This document shows, piece after piece, positions 5,677-18,872 of a DNA stretch of 64,000 bases (its first letter is position 1; each line of letters starts with the position of its first letter). Source of the DNA: an uncultured Clostridium sp. (lineage in GTDB: Bacteria; Bacillota; Clostridia; TANB77; CAG-508); contig CAJMJN010000002.1 in assembly GCA_905213875.1 (NCBI GenBank), positions 68,363 through 132,362 on the forward strand, written 5' to 3'. A program made the position numbers and the translations under genes. The notes beneath the pieces are model-generated. The model saw nothing but the letters and a program-made list of their open reading frames with translations, made no database searches and was not told where the DNA came from.

Positions 5677-6771
5677 TTGAAAAAAGTTTTATTTGTAGCA
5701 ACAATAACAAAACATATAAAAACATTTCATGTTCCATACTTGAAATGGTTTAAAGAACAAGGTTATGAAGTACACGTGGCAAGTAAAGGAAACGAAACAA
5801 TAGAATATTGTGATAAACACTTTGATATTCCATTCGAAAGATTTCCACTAAAACCACAAAATATAAAAGCATATAAACAACTAAAAAATATAATTGAAGA
5901 AAACAAATATGAGATAATTCATTGTCATACGCCAGTTGGTGGAGTATTAACTAGATTAGCGGCAAGAAAAGCAAGAAAGAAATACAACACAAAGGTTATT
6001 TATACAGCTCATGGATTTCATTTTTATAAGGGAGCTCCATTGCTTAATTGGATAATATATTATCCGATAGAAAAATGGTTATCAAAATACACTGATTGCT
6101 TAATTACTATAAATGAAGAAGATTATAATAGAGCAAAAAGTAAGTTTAAAAAGGCAAAAAAAATTAAACTGGTACATGGTGTTGGAGTTGATGAATATAA
6201 GTTTAAGCAAAATATGACAAAAAATGAAAAAATAAACTTAAGAAAAGAATTAGGAATAGAAGAAGATGATTTTGTAATAATATATCCAGCAGAACTAAGT
6301 AAGCGAAAAAACCAAGGAATGTTAATAAGAGCAATATCTCTATTATCAAACAAAGATAAAATAAAGATTTTACTTGCTGGTAAAGATTCGTATAAGGGAA
6401 AGTATCAGAAATTAACAAAAGAACTTGGTTTAGAGAAGCAAATTGTGTTTCTGGGATTTCGAACAGACATTTGTAAATTGATGCAAATTTCTAATATGGC
6501 TGTTTCGACATCAAGACAAGAAGGGCTACCAGTAAATATAATGGAAGCTATGTTTATGGGATTACCAATTATTGCAACTGATTGCAGGGGGAATAATGAG
6601 TTAATAAAAGAAAATCTAGTACAATTAGATGATGAAAAAGAATTGGCTAAATTAGTGAATTCTTGTATAGAAAAGTATAAAGAAAATAATAATATTAGTT
6701 ATCCACTTTTACAGTTATATAAATTAGAAAATGTAAAAAAGGAAATGGAAAAAAGTTATAAAGGAGAATAG
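5677..6771 (+). CDS. Glycosyltransferase family 4 (GT-B)
   Basis: TTG start after a GGAG RBS. C-terminal SRQEGLPVNIMEAMFMGLPIIATDCRGNNE (EX7E-type motif). Confidence 0.85.
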   Translation: MKKVLFVATITKHIKTFHVPYLKWFKEQGYEVHVASKGNETIEYCDKHFDIPFERFPLKPQNIKAYKQLKNIIEENKYEIIHCHTPVGGVLTRLAARKARKKYNTKVIYTAHGFHFYKGAPLLNWIIYYPIEKWLSKYTDCLITINEEDYNRAKSKFKKAKKIKLVHGVGVDEYKFKQNMTKNEKINLRKELGIEEDDFVIIYPAELSKRKNQGMLIRAISLLSNKDKIKILLAGKDSYKGKYQKLTKELGLEKQIVFLGFRTDICKLMQISNMAVSTSRQEGLPVNIMEAMFMGLPIIATDCRGNNELIKENLVQLDDEKELAKLVNSCIEKYKENNNISYPLLQLYKLENVKKEMEKSYKGE

Positions 6772-6775
6772 AATA

Positions 6776-8089
6776 ATGAGTATATATAATGAATTAGTTG
6801 AAAAAAAACAAAAATTGGCGGTAGTTGGCTTGGGATATGTAGGAATGCCTATTGCAATAGAGTTTGCTAAAAAAGTAGATGTAATAGGTTTTGATATAAA
6901 TGCTGAAAAAGTAAAAATCTACCAAAATGGAATTGATCCAACAAATGAAGTTGGTAATGAATCTATTAAAGAAACAAAAGTATATTTTACTTCCGACAAA
7001 AGTGAAATAAAAAAGGCAAAGTTTATAATAATAGCGGTACCAACACCAATTAATATAGATAAGACTCCTGATTTAGAACCAGTAATAAAAGCAAGTGAGA
7101 TAGTAGGGGAAAATTTACAAAAAGGTGCGATAGTAGTGTATGAATCTACAGTTTATCCTGGGGTAACTGAAGATATTTGTATGCCAATACTTGAAAAAAA
7201 ATCAGGACTAAAATGTGGAAAAGATTTTAAAATAGGATATTCACCAGAACGAATTAATCCAGGAGATAAAGAACATAGATTAAAAAATATAACAAAAATA
7301 GTATCAGGGATGGATAATGAAGCCTTAGAAGAAATAGCAAAAATATATGAAATGATAATTGAAGCAGGAGTACACAAAAGTAAAACAATAAGGGTAGCAG
7401 AAGCGGCAAAAGTATTAGAGAATAGTCAAAGAGATATAAATATTGCTTTTATGAATGAAGTAGCTATTATTTTAAATAAAATGAATGTTGACACAAAAGA
7501 AGTAATTGAAGCTATGAACACAAAATGGAATGCTTTAAAATTTTATCCAGGATTAGTTGGAGGACATTGTATAGGTGTGGATCCTTATTATTTCATATAT
7601 AAAGCAGAAAATTTAGGTTATCATTCACAAATAATATCTTCAGGAAGAAAGATAAATGATTATATGGGAGAGTACGTAGCTGAACAAACAATAAAAAGAC
7701 TTATTTTGAATAATAAATTGGTGAAAAATGCGAGAATTGCAATATTAGGAATGACTTTCAAAGAAAACTGCCCAGATATTCGAAATTCTAAAGTAATGGA
7801 TATTATAGGAAAATTAGAAGAATATGGAGTTGAAATAATAGCAACAGATGTAGAAGCTGATAAAGAAGAATTAAAGAAACAATATGGAATAAACTTAGTA
7901 GATATAGATGAAATTGAAAATGTAGATTGTTTAATTTTAGCTGTTTCTCATAATAGGTATAAAAATATGAAAGCAAACGAATTTGAAAAAATGTATAAAA
8001 ATAAAAATAATAAAATTTTAATAGATGTAAAAGGCTGTTTAAAAAGAGAAGAATTCGTTAATAATGGATATGATTATTGGAGGTTGTAA
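6776..8089 (+). CDS. Nucleotide-sugar dehydrogenase, TviB/WbpO-like UDP-N-acetylhexosamine 6-dehydrogenase
   Basis: KLAVVGLGYVGMPIAIEFAKKVDVIGFDIN, catalytic GGHCIGVDPYY, 437 aa. Confidence 0.8.
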   Translation: MSIYNELVEKKQKLAVVGLGYVGMPIAIEFAKKVDVIGFDINAEKVKIYQNGIDPTNEVGNESIKETKVYFTSDKSEIKKAKFIIIAVPTPINIDKTPDLEPVIKASEIVGENLQKGAIVVYESTVYPGVTEDICMPILEKKSGLKCGKDFKIGYSPERINPGDKEHRLKNITKIVSGMDNEALEEIAKIYEMIIEAGVHKSKTIRVAEAAKVLENSQRDINIAFMNEVAIILNKMNVDTKEVIEAMNTKWNALKFYPGLVGGHCIGVDPYYFIYKAENLGYHSQIISSGRKINDYMGEYVAEQTIKRLILNNKLVKNARIAILGMTFKENCPDIRNSKVMDIIGKLEEYGVEIIATDVEADKEELKKQYGINLVDIDEIENVDCLILAVSHNRYKNMKANEFEKMYKNKNNKILIDVKGCLKREEFVNNGYDYWRL

Positions 8090-8094
8090 TTTTA

Positions 8095-9055
8095 ATGAAA
8101 ATACTATCTATAATAATACCTATATATAATTCAGAAAAAACATTAGAAAAGTGTATAAATTCGGTAATAGATATAAAAGATATAGAAATTATATTGATTA
8201 ATGATGGATCTACTGATAAGACAAGAGAAATATGCTTAAAATATCAAAATAAGTATGACAATATTGTAGTAATTCAGCAAGAAAATAGTGGACCGCGGAA
8301 AAGCAAGAAATGAAGGGATAAAAGTAGCCAAAGGTAAATATGTTATGTTTCTTGATTCGGATGACTATATAGAAAAAAATAATTTACAGGAAGTTATAAA
8401 TCAATATTTAAAAAATGAAAAATATGATGTATTATATTATGATTTTGAATTGGTAGCAGATAATGGGATGATATTAAAGAAATATAATTTACAAAAATTT
8501 GCGAAATGTTCTAAAGAAGATTTAATAAAAAATACGATATCTTGGAATTTACCATGGGGACAATTCAAGATTGTTAAAAAAGATATTATAATAGATAATA
8601 ATATTTATTTTGAAGAAGAGATAAGTACTTGTGAAGAGCTTTTCTTTACTATTAGGATTTTGCAAGAAGCAACAAAAGTGTTTTTCTATAACAATGTAAT
8701 ATATAAATATTTAAAAAGAAATGATAGTATTTCTAGAAAAATTAATATATTAGAAAATAAACAATCAGTAGATCTAGTTGTTAAGAAATTAAAGGAAAAT
8801 TTGGATATAAGAAAATATGAAAAAGTAATAGAAAATTATCATATAATATCAAAATTGCATATACTAAAATATTTTGCATTAAATAGAGAGTATAAACTTT
8901 TTAAGAATATATGTATTGATGTAAGGAAAGAATGCAAGAATGTAAGCTATAAATATATGGCAAAAAGGTATAAAAAATTAATCTATATTATTAATTGTCA
9001 TCTGGATTATTTAATATATTATATGATGCGATCTTACTTCAAGGAGAAAGTTTAA
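8095..9055 (+). CDS. Family-2 glycosyltransferase interrupted at in-frame CGG 8296-8298; it continues in the +1 frame
   Basis: ILSIIIPIYNSEKTLEKCINSV...INDGSTD...QQENSGP, then zero frame RKSKK* (8313). The +1 frame from GGA 8297 reads GKARNEGIKVAKGKYVMFLDSDDYI, the GT2 ARN/DxD core. Confidence 0.85.
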
Positions 9056-10497
9056 TGGGTGAGGAAAGAAAATATAACCATGGAGCAAAAATAGTACTTA
9101 TTATTTCAATTTTAATGATTCCGATGCAATTAATTACATCAGCTTTAATAAGCAGAATTTCATCAGAGGCTTCGGGAATTTTAGGTGTACTAGAAATTTT
9201 TTATAATGCTATGATTTCATTTTTTGTTTTTGGTGGAGAGAATGCTATTATAAAGCTTTTGACGAATAAAAAAACAAAAACAGAAAAAAATAACTTTATT
9301 ATAAAATATATATTTATAACTATTATGATATTTATTTCAACGATAGTAATTGCAGAAATATTTCACTTTGATTTTATACAAAAATTAACAGGACAACAAA
9401 AAGCAACATCCATTTTAATGTATGTGGTAGGTTTGTTAATTATCATAAATAACATATTGTTATATTATCTTAAAGAAGAAGAAAAATTTTCTTATTATGC
9501 ATTTGGCATAAAATTATTTAATATAGGGAATTTTGTATCTGTTCTTTATATTACATTTTTAGTTAAGAATGTAGATATACAAAATACTTTGTTGATATTT
9601 ATGGGAACGTTACAATTGTTAAGTATAGTAAGAATAGTGCTCAGGGAAAAAATTACATATAAAAATGTGGGGGAAATGAATCAAATAAAAATAGAAGATA
9701 TTAAATTTATTTTTTTTCTATATCTTTCTACATTGCTAGTATTTATATATGATAAATTAGATCAGATAATATTAGTAAAAACATTAGGATTATCAACTTT
9801 AGGAGGATACTACTTGATTGTAAAAATAGTAAATATGGTAAAGTTGTTACCAAATACGTATAATTCAACTTTTTACCCATATATTTGTAAATATTTGAAT
9901 AAAGAAAGTTCAAATTATATTTTTAATAATATATTATCTAAAAACCTGTTTTTTATTTTTCCATTAACAATAATAATTGTTTTTAATAGTAAATTGGTTA
10001 TTAATATATTATTTGGTATGGAATATATGAATTATAATTTTGCATTACAACTTCTAACAACTATAATATTAATATCAGCACCTACAATCATATTGAATAA
10101 TTTTATATATGCTTTAGGGAAAACAAAAAAATATTTTCAAATAAGCTTTATAGCAATTATAGTACAGGTAATAATTATTGTTAATATGATAAAATATATA
10201 GGACTTAATGCTATTTTAATAGCAAGGTTTGTAAGTACTATGATGATATTTATTTTTTGCAAATTATATTTAAGTAAAATGCAATATAAAACTGAACTAC
10301 CTAAGAATTATTATAGATATAGTGCAGTATTATTAATTTCTTTACTAATTACAAATCTATTTAGATTAAGTATAGTTTGGAATATGATTCTGTCGACTGT
10401 AATCCTTATTATATATATGTTCGAAAATAAAAATTATGTTATAAATAATTATAAAAAAATAAAAGAAAAATTTAACAATAAAAAATCAGTTGAATAG
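9055..10497 (+). CDS. wzx: Wzx-type oligosaccharide flippase (MOP superfamily)
   Basis: About 12 predicted TM helices. ATG 9055 overlaps the upstream TAA (TAATG) after an AAGGAG RBS. Confidence 0.75.
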   Translation: MGEERKYNHGAKIVLIISILMIPMQLITSALISRISSEASGILGVLEIFYNAMISFFVFGGENAIIKLLTNKKTKTEKNNFIIKYIFITIMIFISTIVIAEIFHFDFIQKLTGQQKATSILMYVVGLLIIINNILLYYLKEEEKFSYYAFGIKLFNIGNFVSVLYITFLVKNVDIQNTLLIFMGTLQLLSIVRIVLREKITYKNVGEMNQIKIEDIKFIFFLYLSTLLVFIYDKLDQIILVKTLGLSTLGGYYLIVKIVNMVKLLPNTYNSTFYPYICKYLNKESSNYIFNNILSKNLFFIFPLTIIIVFNSKLVINILFGMEYMNYNFALQLLTTIILISAPTIILNNFIYALGKTKKYFQISFIAIIVQVIIIVNMIKYIGLNAILIARFVSTMMIFIFCKLYLSKMQYKTELPKNYYRYSAVLLISLLITNLFRLSIVWNMILSTVILIIYMFENKNYVINNYKKIKEKFNNKKSVE

Positions 10498-10522
10498 TAA
10501 ATTAGAAAGGAAAAGAATAAAT

Positions 10523-11860
10523 ATGCAGATCTTTAATAATAAATTTGTGAATTATCTATATTTACAATATAAATATAACAATAAATATTTTAGAAAATAT
10601 ATGAATACTTTAAGAAAGTATGAATATGCAAATAGGAAAGAATTAGACGATTATACATTGTATCAAATTAAAAAATTATTAGTATATGCTTATGAAAATG
10701 TAGAATTTTATAAAGATAGATTTGATGAATGTGAATTTAATCCATATACATTTAATGAAATCCAAGAAATAGAAAAAATACCAATTCTTACTAAAAAAGA
10801 AATTATTGATAATAAAGAAAAAATGATTTCAAAACAATTTCGAAATAAAAAACTAAATAAGATAACAACTGGAGGAACAACTGGTACTCCAATGGAATTT
10901 TATTTTTCTGAACAAAGTAAATATATAAGACAAGGTAACTGGGCAAAGTGGAAATTAAGTAGTAAAGTTGACTATAAATATGATAAATATTGTTATATTG
11001 GAAGGATATTGGGATCAAACAGTGCTTGGGAATATAATGGAAATATTCTACAAATAGCATCAAATCAACTATCTGTACAAAATGTAAAAAAAATCATAAA
11101 AGAAATGGAAAGGTTTCAGCCTAAATATATACAAGGGTATGCATCTGCTGTATATATTTTGGCAACAATAATAGAAAGAGAAAACATAGATATTTCTAAA
11201 ATAATGATAAAATCAATTTTAACCTCATCAGATACTATGTTTAAGGAATATAGAGAAAAAATTGAGAAAATATTTCAATGTAAAGTATATGATCATTATG
11301 GTCAAAATGAAGATTGTGTTGCAGCGACAGAATGTGATGAACATAATGGATATCATATACATGAAGAATCTACTTATATAGAAGTAGTAGATATTTATAG
11401 CAATAATAAAATATCAAGTGGAATAGGGAAAATAATAGGAACAAATTTATTCAATTATGCTATGCCATTGATAAGATATGAAATTGGTGATGTAGGAGAA
11501 ATTACTCTTGAAAAATGTAAATGTGGAAATGAACATAAAAGAATCATAAATTTCCAGGGTAGAATAGATGATATAATAAAATTGAAAGATGGAAGAAGAA
11601 TAGCAGCGGGAAGTTTAAACCAACCAATGAAATATTCTAATAATGAAATTATAGAATGTCAATATATACAAGAAAGTATGGATGAATTAGTGATAAATGT
11701 TGTTCCAGATATAAATTTTTCAGACAAAACATTGAAAACGTTTCAAGAAGAATTAGAAACATTGATAGGAAATACTCTAAATATTAAGTTTAATGTGGTA
11801 GAAAATATACCAAGAGCAAAAAATGGAAAATATAAATTTATTATTAGTAAGGTGAAATAG
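10523..11860 (+). CDS. CapK-like adenylate-forming enzyme (phenylacetate-CoA ligase / F390 synthetase family)
   Basis: ITTGGTTGTPMEFYF AMP-binding P-loop-like motif, YDHYGQNE, C-terminal KNGKYKFIIS. Confidence 0.75.
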   Translation: MQIFNNKFVNYLYLQYKYNNKYFRKYMNTLRKYEYANRKELDDYTLYQIKKLLVYAYENVEFYKDRFDECEFNPYTFNEIQEIEKIPILTKKEIIDNKEKMISKQFRNKKLNKITTGGTTGTPMEFYFSEQSKYIRQGNWAKWKLSSKVDYKYDKYCYIGRILGSNSAWEYNGNILQIASNQLSVQNVKKIIKEMERFQPKYIQGYASAVYILATIIERENIDISKIMIKSILTSSDTMFKEYREKIEKIFQCKVYDHYGQNEDCVAATECDEHNGYHIHEESTYIEVVDIYSNNKISSGIGKIIGTNLFNYAMPLIRYEIGDVGEITLEKCKCGNEHKRIINFQGRIDDIIKLKDGRRIAAGSLNQPMKYSNNEIIECQYIQESMDELVINVVPDINFSDKTLKTFQEELETLIGNTLNIKFNVVENIPRAKNGKYKFIISKVK

Positions 11861-11861
11861 T

Positions 11862-13022
11862 ATGAATATAAAAGATATAATATTAAAATATGTAAATAAA
11901 CCAGTGGATAACATAATTAGTTCTCAGACTCTTTATGAAGCATTATTTGCAAATATAAATATGTATTTAAAATATCATAATAAGGAATTTGAAAATAGAT
12001 GTAAAAATATATCACAATTAATTGTAAAAAGTCAATTGCCAGATGGAGGATTTGATATAGGATATAATTTTAGATTTGGAAATAATATGACAAAAAAATC
12101 AGAAAAAGAGTCTACAACACCAGAAGTTTTAAGTATTTATGCACTATTAAAATATTATGAGATTTTTAAGGACGAAAGTGTTGTAATGTCTATAAAAAAA
12201 GGCATGAATTGGATAGAAGAAAAAATATATGAAAAAGATGATGGAATATTTGTTATTCCTTATGCCCCATGTTCATACAGAAGTGTTCATATAACAAATG
12301 CAATATCTTTTACTGTTGCAACAATTGTGTATTATATGTATATATTTAAAGATAAACGATTAAAAAATGTATGTGACGGAATGTTAACATATATGAAAAA
12401 CGAATTAATTATAAAAGATGATATGGGATATTGGAACTACTTTGAAAAAGATATGATAGAAGAAAAAGGCTATTTGAAAACAGATAATTATCATATTGCA
12501 CAACAATTGTATTATCATATTTTGTTAGATAAATATTATGAAAATGTAAATAATAAAGAAATAATAAGATTAGTAAGTAATTATATAAAATATAAATTAA
12601 AAATTAATTTAGCAGTTCCTTATATTGAAATAGGAGAAAAAAAGACAAAAGATATCCATTCTTGGGGATATTGTTCTTTATTATTGTGTGCATTATATTT
12701 TGAAGAAAATACAACAAAAGAAGATATTAAAGAATATATTATGAAATATATGATTAAGGAAGATCATTTTTTACCAATTATAAAAAGTAATGGAGAAGTG
12801 ATAAATGATGACTATTATCCAAGATCTGATGCTTGGGTATTGCATGCATTGTCAGAATATTTATTTATGAATGAAGAAAACAAACAAGTATATGAAATAG
12901 TAAATATAGGACTTGAAAAATTAGAAAAAGTTCAATATAAAGGTTTAGAAAATCATGCATATACAATGAGAAAAAGGATATTTACAAGATGTATAGAAAT
13001 AATAAAAGGGAAAGGAAAATAG
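11862..13022 (+). CDS. Hypothetical protein, possibly an alpha/alpha-toroid fold (prenyltransferase/squalene-oxidase-repeat-like or C5-epimerase-like)
   Basis: Motifs QLPDGGFDIGY, WGYCSLLLCALYF, RSDAWVLHALSEYL. No confident family assignment is possible by eye. Confidence 0.3.
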   Translation: MNIKDIILKYVNKPVDNIISSQTLYEALFANINMYLKYHNKEFENRCKNISQLIVKSQLPDGGFDIGYNFRFGNNMTKKSEKESTTPEVLSIYALLKYYEIFKDESVVMSIKKGMNWIEEKIYEKDDGIFVIPYAPCSYRSVHITNAISFTVATIVYYMYIFKDKRLKNVCDGMLTYMKNELIIKDDMGYWNYFEKDMIEEKGYLKTDNYHIAQQLYYHILLDKYYENVNNKEIIRLVSNYIKYKLKINLAVPYIEIGEKKTKDIHSWGYCSLLLCALYFEENTTKEDIKEYIMKYMIKEDHFLPIIKSNGEVINDDYYPRSDAWVLHALSEYLFMNEENKQVYEIVNIGLEKLEKVQYKGLENHAYTMRKRIFTRCIEIIKGKGK

Positions 13023-14207: not shown

Positions 14208-15437
14208 ATGGACAAAAAGAAGAATGAGAACTATAAAATATTGATACCAATACTTATATTGATTTTTTTCCCTTTTCCATCTAAAGTTTTAGGATATTCA
14301 ACGGCCTTATATATAAGCGATATGGTGTTGATAAGTTATTTATTGTTTGGAGCAATAAATAATAGATATAAGATACCACTAAATAATACAACTTATTTGT
14401 TGATAGGAATGATGGTTGTTAATATTATAGGGATAATTATAGGAGTATTGAAAGGATATGCAGAAATAAGACAATTAATGGAAATCGTAAGAACTTCGGA
14501 GTGGATAATAATATATATATATAATTATAATCTAATAAAAAGAAATCAAGAAGTAGAAACAGCTTTTTTAAAATCAATAAAAGTAATATTACTTTTATTA
14601 ATTCCTTTCGTAATAATAGAGCTATTCAATTTGCCAGGAAAAAATTTGTTGAGAAATTTTTATGAATTAAGTAAATCAGGAAATATATACCAATATTATA
14701 ATAGGATTTCAGGACCATTAAGAAACCCTAATTTTTTAGGAATATTTATGATAATTATACTTAATTTTGTATTAATATCAAATTATAAGTTAATGACAAA
14801 AGTATTATTTGCTATAATAAGTATAGGAATAATTTATTTTACAGGTTCAAGAACAGCAATCATAATTTCTATAATAACAATAATTATAACATGTTTAACT
14901 AATTTAAAAATAAATAGGTCAAGAAAAGAAATTATAAAAAGTATTATTGCTATTATAACTATTTTATTAGTATGTTTATTAGTTATTCAAAAAAACTCAA
15001 AACTATTCTATTCTGTAAGAATTAATGAATTAAAAGATGATATGGATGATTTTAGTGGAAGAAGCCAAATATGGGAAAAATATGAAAAAGATATTCAAGC
15101 AAATATTTTAGTAGGAAATGGAATTGTAAAGAGTAATGAAATAATTTTTGACAATTTGTATATACAATATATGTACTATTATGGAATAGTAGGCATTATT
15201 GTATTAATATGTTTGTTTGTAAAAAACATTGCTAAAATATATAAATTGTACATTTTAGAAAAAGATTTAAAACGAAAGAAATTTGTATTAGGAATTTTTG
15301 CAATTCAAATTATTATTATAGTTTCTGGAGTGACAATTCAGATTTTAGATTCCTTGCAAATATTCTATTTCTATATATTAGCAATGGCATATATAGATGT
15401 TAGGTACAGTAATTTGACAGATGTGAAATTAAAATAA
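14208..15437 (+). CDS. wzy: O-antigen ligase / Wzy-type polymerase family membrane protein
   Basis: About 10 TM helices, with a Wzy_C-like core (YFTGSRTAIIISIITIIIT) and a periplasmic loop. Confidence 0.7.
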   Translation: MDKKKNENYKILIPILILIFFPFPSKVLGYSTALYISDMVLISYLLFGAINNRYKIPLNNTTYLLIGMMVVNIIGIIIGVLKGYAEIRQLMEIVRTSEWIIIYIYNYNLIKRNQEVETAFLKSIKVILLLLIPFVIIELFNLPGKNLLRNFYELSKSGNIYQYYNRISGPLRNPNFLGIFMIIILNFVLISNYKLMTKVLFAIISIGIIYFTGSRTAIIISIITIIITCLTNLKINRSRKEIIKSIIAIITILLVCLLVIQKNSKLFYSVRINELKDDMDDFSGRSQIWEKYEKDIQANILVGNGIVKSNEIIFDNLYIQYMYYYGIVGIIVLICLFVKNIAKIYKLYILEKDLKRKKFVLGIFAIQIIIIVSGVTIQILDSLQIFYFYILAMAYIDVRYSNLTDVKLK

Positions 15438-15451
15438 AAAATTATATTAAT

Positions 15452-15487
15452 ATCCAAGAAACTTTTGAAGCCTTGGATTATTTTTTA
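15452..15487 (+). terminator. Rho-independent terminator ending the first capsule transcription unit
   Basis: atccaag (15452-15458) pairs with cttggat (15472-15478), followed by a T-run. Confidence 0.55.
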
Positions 15488-15523
15488 TTACAATAAAAAA
15501 GGAAAAAATAATTTATTAGGTTG

Positions 15524-15569
15524 TTGACAAAATAATATGTATGCCTTATAATATTACTTATAAGTAATA
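15524..15569 (+). promoter_or_regulatory. Consensus promoter plus palindromic operator of the toxin-antitoxin-chaperone cassette
   Basis: TTGACA (15524-15529), 17-nt spacer, TATAAT (15547-15552). The 18-bp perfect palindrome tattacttataagtaata (15552-15569) follows immediately. Confidence 0.7.
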
Positions 15570-15611
15570 ACAAAGGAGAAGGAAAATGAGAAATAGATAC
15601 ATAAGGAGTAG

Positions 15612-16043
15612 ATGAATGTGAGTGCTAAAGATGATTTTACAGCAATGCTAGAAATATTGAAATTAATGCACAATGTGGATTATGTTGAACAAGTTATAGA
15701 TGATATAAGTAAGCTTGTAAAAACGGATAAATTAGAATTCATGGATGAATTTACAAGAAATATGTCAAGAAAAAATCAGAAAAAGCATAATAGATATGAG
15801 CCTTTAATGAAACTAACAAAAAATCAAAAACGAAGATTAGATGGAAGAAAACTATATCGATACGAATATAGAAAAAATTCAAATTTTAGATGTATATATT
15901 TAGCAAAAGATGCATATAATAATATGATTATATTGTTAGCTTTTAATGAAGACGGAGACAAAAGTAAAGGAAAAGGCAATTATGATTTAAATATAGAGAA
16001 AGCTATAAAAAGATATGAAAGTTTTAAAAAGAGTATGAGGTAA
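15612..16043 (+). CDS. RelE/HigB-like toxin with an N-terminal extension (start ATG 15612 or GTG 15618)
   Basis: C-terminal core LYRYEYRKNSNFRCIYLAKDAYNNMIILLAFNEDGDKSK...IEKAIKRYESF fits the RelE/HigB/Gp49 pattern. It lies upstream of an Xre antitoxin. Confidence 0.55.
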   Translation: MNVSAKDDFTAMLEILKLMHNVDYVEQVIDDISKLVKTDKLEFMDEFTRNMSRKNQKKHNRYEPLMKLTKNQKRRLDGRKLYRYEYRKNSNFRCIYLAKDAYNNMIILLAFNEDGDKSKGKGNYDLNIEKAIKRYESFKKSMR

Positions 16044-16048
16044 AGAAT

Positions 16049-16537
16049 ATGGAAAAGGTATATATTGAAAATGTAAATAAAAGTGAAAATTTAAAAGTTA
16101 GTCGAGAAGTAAAAGAAATTTTTGATTTAAATGAAATTTATTATTCTATTTCAAAAATGATATTACAATATAGAGAAGACTATAATTTAACACAAAAAGA
16201 ATTAGCAAAAAAGTTAGAAGTAAATCAAACAATGATATCAAAAATAGAAAGTGGAAAATATAATCCTACATTTAAGCAAATATATAAAATTTCAAGCAAA
16301 TTAACACATTCGGCTGATATGTTCAAAGAAATATTAAGAAACATATTAAGGAGTTTAGATAAAGTTGATTATATTATAAATGTTAAAATGACAAAAAATA
16401 TAAATGAATACAAGTTAAAAAAGTACTATAAGAGCGATGATAAAAATAACGTGTTATATGTACAAGAATTTTACATTAATAATGAAGGAGAAAAAAACAA
16501 TGAAAGAAATACAAGCAAGTATACAATTAATGGATAG
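16049..16537 (+). CDS. Xre-family HTH antitoxin (HigA-like) with a roughly 75-aa C-terminal extension
   Basis: LTQKELAKKLEVNQTMISKIESGKYNPTFKQIYKISSKL helix-turn-helix. The aromatic-rich tail (VLYVQEFYI) overlaps the next gene. Confidence 0.8.
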   Translation: MEKVYIENVNKSENLKVSREVKEIFDLNEIYYSISKMILQYREDYNLTQKELAKKLEVNQTMISKIESGKYNPTFKQIYKISSKLTHSADMFKEILRNILRSLDKVDYIINVKMTKNINEYKLKKYYKSDDKNNVLYVQEFYINNEGEKNNERNTSKYTING

Positions 16538-16934
16538 TTATATAAAAAATTATAATCTAAATTTAAAAGGAAGATTAACAGGTGAAGAAAAAGTAGATTT
16601 AGGATGTTCTATTACTTTTGAAATTGTAAAGATAGAAAAAAAAGAAGAGAATCAGATTGGTCAAATAAAAATGAAATATCAAATTGAAATAATAAAAAAG
16701 GAAGAAATATTTGGAAGAATTGAATTAGAAATTCAAGGACTTTTTGAGACTGATAAAAATTTATCAAAAGAGGAATTTGAAAATATTTTAAAATATAATG
16801 GAGCACCCGTAATATCTAATATTGCTCGTTCATATATTATATCTAATACATCTTTAAGTGAAATGCCAACAATAAGAATTCCTTTAATTAATTTTGTTGA
16901 ATTTTTTGATAAAGCTAATAAGACAAATAAATAG
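16500..16934 (+). CDS. SecB-like chaperone
   Basis: AAGGAG RBS before ATG 16500. GRIELEIQGLFETD...ILKYNGAPVISNIARSYIISNTSLSEMPTIRIPLINFVEFF aligns by eye with E. coli SecB CEVQQGGIFSI...[36 protein letters not shown]. Confidence 0.8.
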   Translation: MKEIQASIQLMDSYIKNYNLNLKGRLTGEEKVDLGCSITFEIVKIEKKEENQIGQIKMKYQIEIIKKEEIFGRIELEIQGLFETDKNLSKEEFENILKYNGAPVISNIARSYIISNTSLSEMPTIRIPLINFVEFFDKANKTNK

Positions 16935-17048
16935 AACAAATAATATTCTTAATATTAAAATTTATGTTTGATAAAGCTCGGTTCTATATTGAATAATATA
17001 TAGAAAGGGGCTTTTATTACAATATCTTGATTTTTTTTGCTAAAAATC

Positions 17049-17128: not shown

Positions 17129-17839
17129 ATGGAAGAATTAGATTTAAAAGAATTATTTGTAATGTTTTGGAACAAAAAAGCACAAATAATATTAGTAGTA
17201 TTAATATTTATAGCAATAGGAGTAATATATACAGTAGGATTTACAACACCTAAATATAGCGCTTCAACATCGTTACTATTAGCTGGCTCAGGCTCTAGTG
17301 GAACACAAACAAATACAATAACAACAACAGATGTAACATTAAACTCTAAACTAGTTTCAACATATAGTGAATTAGTAAAAAGTAAAAATGTATTAGGACA
17401 AGTTATTTCAAATTTAAACATAAATGAAAATTATGAAACTTTAAAAAATAACATTTCAGTAACAAATGTAAAAGATACAGAAATGATAAAAATCACAGTA
17501 ACTACTGAAAATGCACAAAATGCAGCTAAAATAGCAAATGAAACAGCAAAAGTATTCATAGAAAAAGTGGCAAATGATTTTTACAACATAAATAATGTTC
17601 ATATTGTAGATGAAGCAGAAGTTAATACAACACCATCAAATATTAACCATAAAAAAGATATTTTAATATTTGCCTTTATTGGTTTAGTCATATCAGTAAT
17701 ATATGTTTTAATTGCTAATATGTTAGATACTACAATAAAAACAGCAGAAGAAGTAGAAAAAGAATATAAATTGCCTGTATTGGCTTCAATACCATTATAT
17801 GCAGGTGATGCACAAAAAGGAAAAGGAGGAAGAAGATAA
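17129..17839 (+). CDS. Wzz/CpsC/YveK-type chain-length determinant (tyrosine-kinase transmembrane modulator)
   Basis: DLKELFVMFWNKKAQIILVVLIFIAIG N-terminal TM, a periplasmic coiled region, a C-terminal TM, and a basic tail. Confidence 0.85.
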   Translation: MEELDLKELFVMFWNKKAQIILVVLIFIAIGVIYTVGFTTPKYSASTSLLLAGSGSSGTQTNTITTTDVTLNSKLVSTYSELVKSKNVLGQVISNLNINENYETLKNNISVTNVKDTEMIKITVTTENAQNAAKIANETAKVFIEKVANDFYNINNVHIVDEAEVNTTPSNINHKKDILIFAFIGLVISVIYVLIANMLDTTIKTAEEVEKEYKLPVLASIPLYAGDAQKGKGGRR

Positions 17840-18872
17840 TGAAAAGAGAATTAATAGTACATCAAGATCCAAAATCTCCAATTTCTGAAGTGTTTAGAAC
17901 ATTAAGAACTAATATTCAATTTATGAATACTAAAGGAAAATTGAAACGATATTAGTAACATCAACTTTACCAGGTGAAGGTAAAAGCTGGGTATCATCAA
18001 ACTTAGCAGTAACTTTTGCTCAAGCAGGTAAAAAAGTTGTATTAATAGATGCAGATATGAGAAAAGGAAGACAATATTCAATATTTGAAGTTTCACCAAG
18101 ACCAGGGCTTTCAAATTATTTATCAGGAATAGATGAAACTAATGACGAAAATAAGGAATTAGATTTAGCAGACTACATACAAGAAACAGATGTAGAAAAT
18201 TTATACTTGATAGCAGCAGGTAATATTCCACCAAATCCAGCAGAACTTTTAATTGCTCCACAAATGGTTGATTTATTAGAACAATTAAAAGAAATATGTG
18301 ATATTGTTATAATAGATGGAACACCAAGCCAATTAGTTACAGATGCTTTGATATTAACAAGATTAGTTGATTCAACATTAATTGTAACTGCCAGTAAGCA
18401 AACTAAGAAAGAGGATTTAAAAAGAATTATTGCTAATATTCAACAAGTAGGCGGAAAAATTGCTGGGGTAGTTGTAAATAAAATGCCAATGAATGCTAAA
18501 AAATATGAACAATCATATTATTATGGTTCTACTTCTATGTCAAGAACAAAAAACAATAATAGAACAGCACAAAGAAGTGCATCAAGAACGACAACTAAGA
18601 GACAAAATAGAGAAATGTATAATAGAGCTTCAAATTTAATGGCTCAAAGTGGAAATAGAAAAATAAGTAGCAAACAAGAAATAGCAGATATTAAGCAAAA
18701 TCAAGATATGGAAGCAAACAGCAAGACATATGAACAAACAGATGAAATACCAACAGCATTACAAAATAAAATAAAAATAGAGAATAAAGAAGAAATATCA
18801 ACTGAAAAGACACAAGAGATATTAAATCAAATAAATCAATATCTAGATGAAGAAAAGAAAAAAATGAATTAA
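17839..18872 (+). pseudogene. CpsD/CapB-type BY tyrosine kinase with a 1-nt frame break in an A-run (17934-17950)
   Basis: Frame 1: MKRELIVHQDPKSPISEVFRTLRTNIQFMNTKGKLKRY* (stop 17953-17955). The -1 frame continues TILVTSTLPGEGKSWVSSNLAVTFAQAGKKVVLIDADMRKG (Walker A and A'), then the Tyr cluster YYY (18516-18524). Confidence 0.85.

Follow-up and report, generated by a model that had tools for sequence, protein, structure and literature searches.

Toxin-antitoxin-chaperone (TAC) modules form a small class of phage-sensing toxin-antitoxin (TA) modules that became understood recently and has been characterised mostly in Actinobacteria and Proteobacteria; the type that combines a Gp49-family HigB toxin with a HigA antitoxin and a SecB-like chaperone is their founding example. 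TACs have been recorded in seven phyla, with Caldicellulosiruptor as a firmicute example (PMC3581621). In the Mycobacterium tuberculosis TAC, HigB1-HigA1-SecB(TA) (Rv1955-1956-1957), the toxin HigB1 belongs to the Gp49 family (PMC11980606) and the antitoxin carries a C-terminal extension of ~46 aa (PMC5105189, PMC6377645); in Escherichia coli HigA, four spaced aromatics of the chaperone-addiction (ChAD) region fit equivalent pockets of the chaperone tetramer (bioRxiv 10.1101/2024.02.24.581848). Here, we investigated a three-gene cassette at positions 15612-16934 of a 64-kb stretch of contig CAJMJN010000002.1 from an uncultured Clostridium sp. (the whole stretch of 64,000 nt is called the window). 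The cassette is very likely a TAC module of the HigB (Gp49-type)/HigA (Xre helix-turn-helix, HTH)/SecB-like kind, forming a laterally exchanged unit of ~1.47 kb at the junction between the variable and the conserved part of a capsule locus. A TAC interpretation had already been proposed from the letters of the window (called the sequence-only reading for simplicity). It proved largely right, as all three components were found and the triad is conserved as a unit; its claims of flanking terminators and of a long toxin extension fared less well, as described below.

The cassette shares with the M. tuberculosis TAC the order toxin, antitoxin, chaperone, a toxin candidate in or near Gp49 with a long C-terminal helix, an HTH antitoxin candidate with a C-terminal extension (~45-65 aa across the two systems) and a chaperone of the SecB fold. 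Unlike in M. tuberculosis, the toxin candidate has diverged too far for Pfam, contains an additional N-terminal helix and an insertion of ~12 aa and carries a Glu at the position equivalent to K95 of HigB1, the antitoxin candidate ends in ..NG or ..AG and not in a Val-Ala ClpXP degron, and the host belongs to the low-GC gut Clostridia. The prophage-encoded antiphage TAC HigBAC of E. coli NT1F31 is likewise a HigB/HigA/SecB-like triad with several spaced aromatics in its ChAD region, and some relatives of our cassette also lie in prophage or defence loci. However, the ChAD region of HigBAC spans 96 aa with aromatics ~30 aa apart, whereas ~65 aa and spacings of 10-21 aa were found here, and its toxin is a HigB as opposed to the Gp49-like candidate of the cassette. 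CmdTAC (PD-T4-9) follows the same three-gene toxin-antitoxin-chaperone logic, and the PADLOC model of its chaperone CmdC (PD-T4-9_C) matches gene 3 with an E-value of 7.8e-6; yet CmdT acts as an ADP-ribosyltransferase on mRNA, gene 1 finds no match in PADLOC and CmdA is not an Xre HTH protein. With gene 3 as the only matching component, membership in CmdTAC/PD-T4-9 was rejected. Two-gene HigBA systems such as that of Streptococcus pneumoniae (6af3/6af4) also encode the toxin first, followed by an HTH_3 antitoxin, and S. pneumoniae HigBA shows the closest structural resemblance to the gene 1 model (TM up to 0.59), but these systems have neither a chaperone gene nor a long antitoxin tail.

The family described here extends TACs to uncultured, very low-GC gut Clostridia and adds a candidate Gp49-related toxin subfamily that current domain libraries miss, in which the Lys essential in HigB1 is replaced by a conserved Glu. 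It also provides a clean natural example of co-variation between an operator and a recognition helix, with the compact ChAD-like tail and the recurrent capsule-locus address as further points of interest. In other respects, architecture and likely mechanism match the existing descriptions of HigBAC-type systems.

The three proteins and the putative operator

Three open reading frames (ORFs) lie in one shared orientation (+ strand) at 15612-16934, as the sequence-only reading had described: gene 1 (toxin candidate, 15612-16043, 143 aa), gene 2 (antitoxin candidate, 16049-16537, 162 aa) and gene 3 (SecB-like chaperone, 16500-16934, 144 aa from an ATG that follows GAAGGAG). The last 38 nt of gene 2 (16500-16537) are shared with the start of gene 3, again in agreement with that reading, and an overlap is kept in 10/10 lineages in which both ends could be mapped. 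The order toxin, HTH protein, SecB-like protein was found in all 18 loci of a first batch, at protein identities of 35-57%, and recurs in the loci collected later; the triad is thus conserved as a unit behind a single promoter. No further copies of gene 1, 2 or 3 are present elsewhere in the window.

Gene 3, which had been aligned by eye to the SecB core, is matched over its full length by Pfam SecB (24.3 bits, E 3.3e-5, just below the gathering score of 26 bits), and a profile built from 13 of its homologues recovered 275 proteins, most of them with a precomputed PF02556 annotation. Profile searches of PDB sequences with gene 3 alignments gave no SecB match, so that a comparison at the level of the fold was needed. 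The AlphaFold2 model (71 sequences, pLDDT 90.6) consists of four long strands, one helix of 30 residues and a short helix at the C-terminus. In the Foldseek search of the PDB, the top 19 matches were SecB of Haemophilus influenzae or E. coli or M. tuberculosis Rv1957 with the ChAD peptide (5mtw among the top), with E-values of 4e-7 to 3e-5, TM of 0.6-0.8 and a probability of 1.00. Modelling, which the sequence-only reading had proposed as a check, thereby confirmed the predicted SecB fold of gene 3 with confidence. A housekeeping export SecB was rejected, since the gene always follows the toxin-HTH pair; with the NCBIfam secB equivalogs it scored 18.6-22.5 bits, below their cutoffs (103-143 bits).

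The family of gene 1 is small: a search of 5.8 billion proteins gave 14 clusters, and one of 1.84 billion representatives gave 60 at E<=1e-3. The start of gene 1 may lie at ATG 15612 or at GTG 15618 (141 aa), which is placed 9 nt after AAGGAG, has the better spacing to this ribosome-binding site (RBS) and is the start used by database copies such as P0001. Pfam Gp49 (PF05973) matched 13 of 31 diverse full-length relatives (best E 1.4e-7), and the relatives P0053 (29.5 bits), P0067 (31.9), P0077 (28.5) and P0075 (24.2) exceed the Gp49 gathering score of 23.9 bits, which gene 1 itself does not reach. P0053 also joins the gene 1 profile with an E-value of 4.6e-9, and because it passes the Gp49 cutoff as well, the homology of gene 1 to Gp49 is transitive. 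At the sequence level, these bridging relatives provide a sound transitive link between the gene 1 family and the Gp49/RelE superfamily. The RelE/HigB assignment made for gene 1 in the sequence-only reading consequently holds by way of relatives, but its own protein matches no toxin model. A profile search of PDB sequences with gene 1 gave YoeB (E 0.002) over the core strands, and a broader profile aligned to YoeB over nearly its full length (profile positions 15-109, E 0.08); a single-sequence PDB search with the bridging toxin P0067 gave nothing relevant.

The AlphaFold2 model of gene 1 (pLDDT 84.6, pTM 0.82) contains an extra helix (residues 5-20), a strand, two helices, an inserted strand-helix (strand 61-64, helix 70-75), three strands and a long C-terminal helix, and apart from the extra elements the predicted order is that of RelE-type toxins (strand, two helices, three antiparallel strands and, in Gp49-like members, a long C-terminal helix). 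RelE/ParE-type toxins, namely PfiT, HigB2 of Vibrio cholerae and HigB of S. pneumoniae, formed the sole coherent group of Foldseek matches, and a Foldseek search against viral structures gave no meaningful match. An N-terminal extension of ~70 aa had been attributed to this protein, which was overstated: the Gp49 profile begins near residue 41-43 in the bridging relatives, so that most of the supposed extension is ordinary fold, and the true extras are ~20 aa at the N-terminus and an insertion of ~12 aa (residues ~66-78).

Gene 2 combines an Xre-type HTH (~residues 34-88, nt 16148-16312; HTH_3 matches residues 39-85 with E 1.3e-13) with a C-terminal tail of ~65 aa (~residues 97-162, nt 16337-16534), as had been recognised from the letters. 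Across 17 lineages the HTH is nearly invariant, and the tail is variable yet patterned: aromatic residues are conserved at Y108 (94%), Y129 (94%) and Y139 (76%), stretches such as DYIINVK and VLYVQEFYI alternate in a beta-like manner, a Gly is near-invariant and the end carries a conserved TS..S..G. An antitoxin extension with hydrophobic and aromatic motifs, as found in TACs, is therefore present, and similar aromatic motifs have been described for ChAD elements (bioRxiv 10.1101/2024.02.24.581848; PMC6377645). We consider the tail a candidate ChAD region.

The cassette is preceded by a sigma-70-type promoter of its own, TTGACA - 17 nt - TATAAT at 15524-15552 (+), with 12/12 consensus matches, in line with the sequence-only reading; two such perfect sites are seen in the 64-kb window versus 0.09 expected. 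The -10 box is kept in most cassette lineages, with one-base variants in four. Abutting the -10 box lies a perfect 18-bp palindrome, TATTACTTATAAGTAATA (15552-15569, not assigned to either strand), the putative operator, which is unique in the window. A palindrome adjoins the -10 box in 18/18 cassette lineages, including those at ~40% protein identity. It occurs in two symmetric variants, ..TTAC..GTAA.. in nine lineages and ..TAAC..GTTA.. in eight, with one hybrid, the two half-sites having changed together. All nine TTAC operators are paired with a gene 2 recognition helix that starts with NQT, and 7/8 TAAC operators with DQV, NQV or QQA, i.e. with a non-T residue (Fisher's exact ~4e-4 by hand calculation, the lineages not being independent). 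Because the operator is conserved, has symmetric half-sites and co-varies with the recognition helix of the HTH, gene 2 is a candidate autoregulator. The pairing of an HTH_3 protein with a palindrome in its own promoter is that of autoregulating Xre/HigA-type antitoxins, and there is strong indirect evidence that gene 2 binds its own promoter, as type II antitoxins do. Conservation and co-variation of the operator also argue against regulation of other promoters of the locus by gene 2.

By analogy with the described systems, the cassette would work as follows. Gene 2 dimers would bind the palindrome beside the -10 box and repress the operon, and gene 2 would neutralise the gene 1 toxin, which is most likely a ribosome-dependent mRNA endonuclease. 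The aromatic, aggregation-prone tail of gene 2 would render it unstable unless wrapped by the gene 3 tetramer, and the overlap of the two genes would couple their translation, such that the chaperone is made alongside the antitoxin. If gene 3 were titrated by a competing client, e.g. a phage structural protein, the antitoxin would be lost and the freed toxin would arrest translation. Titration of the chaperone in E. coli HigBAC is brought about by a phage structural protein whose aromatic pattern is similar.

Exchange, genomic contexts and role of the cassette

All genome matches of the cassette are metagenome-assembled genomes (MAGs) of uncultured Clostridia or Clostridiaceae from human, mouse, rabbit and other guts, in keeping with the clostridial origin suggested beforehand; among the JGI metagenome contigs, three short cassette loci were present. 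The exchangeable unit at 15492-16960 (+) comprises promoter, operator, the three genes and ~25 bp of 3' tail and is 93% identical at the nucleotide level to locus L010, which stems from a Hadza-gut Clostridia MAG (the representative of a sister species). In L010 the genes downstream of the cassette are 78% identical at the nucleotide level and those upstream are unrelated; its cassette proteins are 91-95% identical versus 66% for Wzz, 64% for Wze, 78% for CpsB and 88% for phosphoglucomutase (PGM). In locus L035 the flanks are equally related (PGM 87.5%), yet the cassette proteins are just 48-55% identical. From this difference in the face of equally related flanks, the sequences indicate that cassette alleles are exchanged independently of the backbone. 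A 13-nt direct repeat, TTTTATTACAATA (15483-15495 and 17012-17024), brackets the cassette and might have been a target-site duplication. Neither L010 junction has it, however, and by our own estimate chance alone would produce one to two AT-rich repeats of this kind in 2.1 kb; for these reasons it was dismissed as evidence of transposition.

The cassette was found in ~16 distinct neighbourhoods. About seven of them are in or beside polysaccharide loci: the window together with L010, the species represented by L001-L006, L012 and L013, and the loci L007, L028, L040, L035 and L015. The cassette occupies the variable/conserved junction of a cps locus in both the window and L010, and in L035 and L040 it is close to wzz-wze-cpsB. 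In L001-L006, L012 and L013 (cassette at 6001-7256 or 7001-8256), all from one Clostridiaceae species, it comes after GLF-VanZ and forms the fixed end of a strain-variable locus: cassette and GLF-VanZ are constant, and the polysaccharide genes further upstream vary between samples, with at least four gene sets. In L028 the cassette heads a polysaccharide locus with the order VanZ - Bac_transf - Wzy - GT2 - Wzx - LicD. Elsewhere, it adjoins GmrSD and an AlwI-type restriction-modification (R-M) system (L019) or a type I R-M system (L030), lies near a Mob_Pre gene (L022) or has ordinary housekeeping surroundings (L024, L037, L039 and L017). L026 (6127-7441) carries it as a moron in a siphovirus-like prophage (major head protein matched at 1e-108), where the tail-chaperone gene lies on one side and the tape-measure gene on the other. 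Morons in this unusual spot within the prophage structural module are also seen in L027 and L016. Upstream of the cassette, L035 (1-4282) contains AAA_21 + RloB, AAA_14/DUF4143 and AAA-ATPase_like genes, which may be defence-related; downstream, a sortase gene is followed by the same wzz-wze-cpsB-pgm block as in the window.

The biological role is most likely, by analogy, abortive-infection defence or addiction of a mobile segment, and not capsule synthesis. Copies in R-M/GmrSD islands and prophages together with the lateral exchange would fit a stabilising or abortive-infection role, and the placement in prophages and defence islands parallels that of E. coli HigBAC and CmdTAC. An enrichment in capsule loci stands out; such loci are themselves recombination hot spots, and the repeated association merits a systematic test. 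One could read the cassette as a purely selfish addiction or stabilisation module that anchors the variable capsule segment or itself by post-segregational killing and has no part in phage defence. Its position at the variable/conserved junction or near wzz-wze-cpsB and the share of polysaccharide contexts speak for such a function, as do the TA genes reported from streptococcal cps loci (PMC3541774). On the other hand, TA modules generally stabilise chromosomes weakly, and the same cassette is also found in R-M/GmrSD islands and in a prophage structural module. TACs characterised from locations of this sort function in defence (bioRxiv 10.1101/2024.02.24.581848; PMC11618068). We regard a purely stabilising function as rather doubtful, and the two roles are not mutually exclusive.

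Toxin chemistry and other possible functions

Several observations weigh against the reading as a TAC module. The gene 1 protein has no match in Pfam (E up to 1), NCBIfam, PADLOC or PHROGs, and the Foldseek matches of its model, at TM of 0.36-0.59, have no significant E-value (best 0.5). The tail of gene 2 is modestly enriched in aromatics (~12% vs ~8% in the remainder of the protein). Searches of IMG/VR viral contigs, GenBank phages and PLSDB plasmids gave no relative of the cassette, and a placement in polysaccharide loci in ~7/16 contexts is not obviously predicted if the cassette were a TA module inserted at random. Chaperone addiction, toxicity and phage defence are assigned to the cassette by analogy. 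Finally, residues implicated in HigB1 function are partly replaced. The HigB1 sequence used for this comparison was checked against PDB 7awk, to which it is identical except for the K95A change of that entry, and hhalign aligned it to the gene 1 family profile with a pairwise E-value of 0.011. The proposed catalytic or mRNA-contact residues of HigB1 are K58, E66, R68, N73, R77, F93, K95, Q98 and K99, and the K95A change abolishes toxicity (PMC9098466). In the alignment, N73, R77, F93 and K99 have the identical equivalents N89, R93, F111 and K117 in gene 1, and Q98 corresponds to D116. The pair E66/R68 corresponds to R83/E85, i.e. its order is swapped, and K95 to E113, a near-invariant Glu of the gene 1 family that the sequence-only reading had overlooked. 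Owing to the Glu at the K95 position and the swapped pair, the catalytic chemistry of gene 1, or even its toxicity, may differ from that of HigB1.

Taken further, the toxin could be dead or repurposed, in which case the module would be a regulatory antitoxin-chaperone (AC) pair or a decayed TAC. The Glu at the K95 position would be in line with this, as would the non-toxic Gp49 members HigB2 and HigB3 of M. tuberculosis (PMC9098466) and the existence of AC systems without a toxin (PMC3581621). In one lineage gene 1 is indeed frameshifted: L028 (4431-4843) and L029 (1-171), from two independent samples, carry the identical frameshift and intact genes 2 and 3, the pattern expected when the toxin gene decays first, and this state resembles the known AC systems (PMC3581621). 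The truncated toxin seen in L022 and L023 was set aside as a possible long-read assembly error, the HTH gene being split as well in L023. Strong purifying selection nevertheless acts on gene 1, which is intact in nearly all lineages: its alignment of 15 sequences has 36 invariant columns, charged and polar residues among them (R83, E85, R87, N89, N91, E113, D114, K117 and Y124). Moreover, RelE-fold RNases use varied catalytic sets, some with Glu (YoeB). A dead or repurposed toxin is therefore considered unlikely.

The polysaccharide placement could also be functional in itself. In this scenario, phages that use the particular capsule as receptor would be sensed by the SecB-like chaperone through one of their structural proteins, and linkage to the serotype-determining genes would let a serotype-matched abortive-infection immunity travel with the capsule type. 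Cassette alleles do differ between equally related genomes (93% vs ~50% identity), as capsule genes do; we nevertheless judge the proposal improbable. According to a weaker variant, loss of the antitoxin may derepress the cassette promoter, and read-through into wzz-wze-cpsB may then couple toxin activation to capsule remodelling. Control of wzz-wze-cpsB or of the variable genes by the HTH protein together with its partners, as a dedicated capsule regulator, appears very improbable: the recurrent polysaccharide-locus placement and the lack of a convincing terminator between gene 3 and wzz, which makes read-through from the strong cassette promoter into wzz possible, would favour it, but the 64-kb window has a single copy of the operator, which lies at the promoter of the cassette itself, the same cassette and operator are found in non-capsule contexts, wzz has a promoter-like site of its own, and RelE-fold proteins and SecB-like chaperones are not known to be components of capsule regulators.

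Flanking signals and neighbouring genes

Within a polysaccharide locus, the cassette is flanked by genes for Wzy_C (14208-15437) and Wzz (17129-17839), and the annotation of these neighbours bears out the placement between wzy and wzz proposed in the sequence-only reading. The upstream neighbours are genes for a GT2, a Wzx-like flippase, a GT1 and Wzy_C, and the downstream ones encode Wzz, a tyrosine kinase, CpsB and PGM. The GC content is 20-30% throughout, with no compositional break at the cassette. Two long ORFs (456 and 386 aa) in the variable capsule part (10490-13022) have no Pfam match at 1e-4.

The flanking terminators that had been claimed were not recovered: the terminator scan found no intrinsic terminator around the cassette, and folding revealed nothing convincing 3' of gene 3. 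A weak hairpin 3' of the wzy stop (15452-15488, +), with the 7-bp stem ATCCAAG/CTTGGAT followed by a T-run (-6.7 kcal/mol, z -1.5), was missed by the scan and lies outside the block conserved with L010; it is possibly the terminator of the upstream operon.

Between operator and gene 1 lies an upstream ORF of nine codons (MRNRYIRSR*, 15586-15615), with an RBS-like AAAGGAGAAGG of its own and a stop codon overlapping the ATG at 15612. This ORF is kept in L010 with one substitution and not in the more distant cassette lineages inspected. The second perfect TTGACA-17-TATAAT site of the window is found at its extreme end (63953-63981). The capsule tyrosine-kinase gene (Wze/CpsD-like, 17839-18060) is frameshifted: frame 0 ends at 17955 after ...NTKGKLKRY, and the Walker-A part (TSTLPGEGKSW...) resumes in another frame, which could be due to a pseudogene, phase variation or a sequencing error. 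The orthologues in L010 and L035 are unbroken, with lengths of 330 and 245 aa, respectively.

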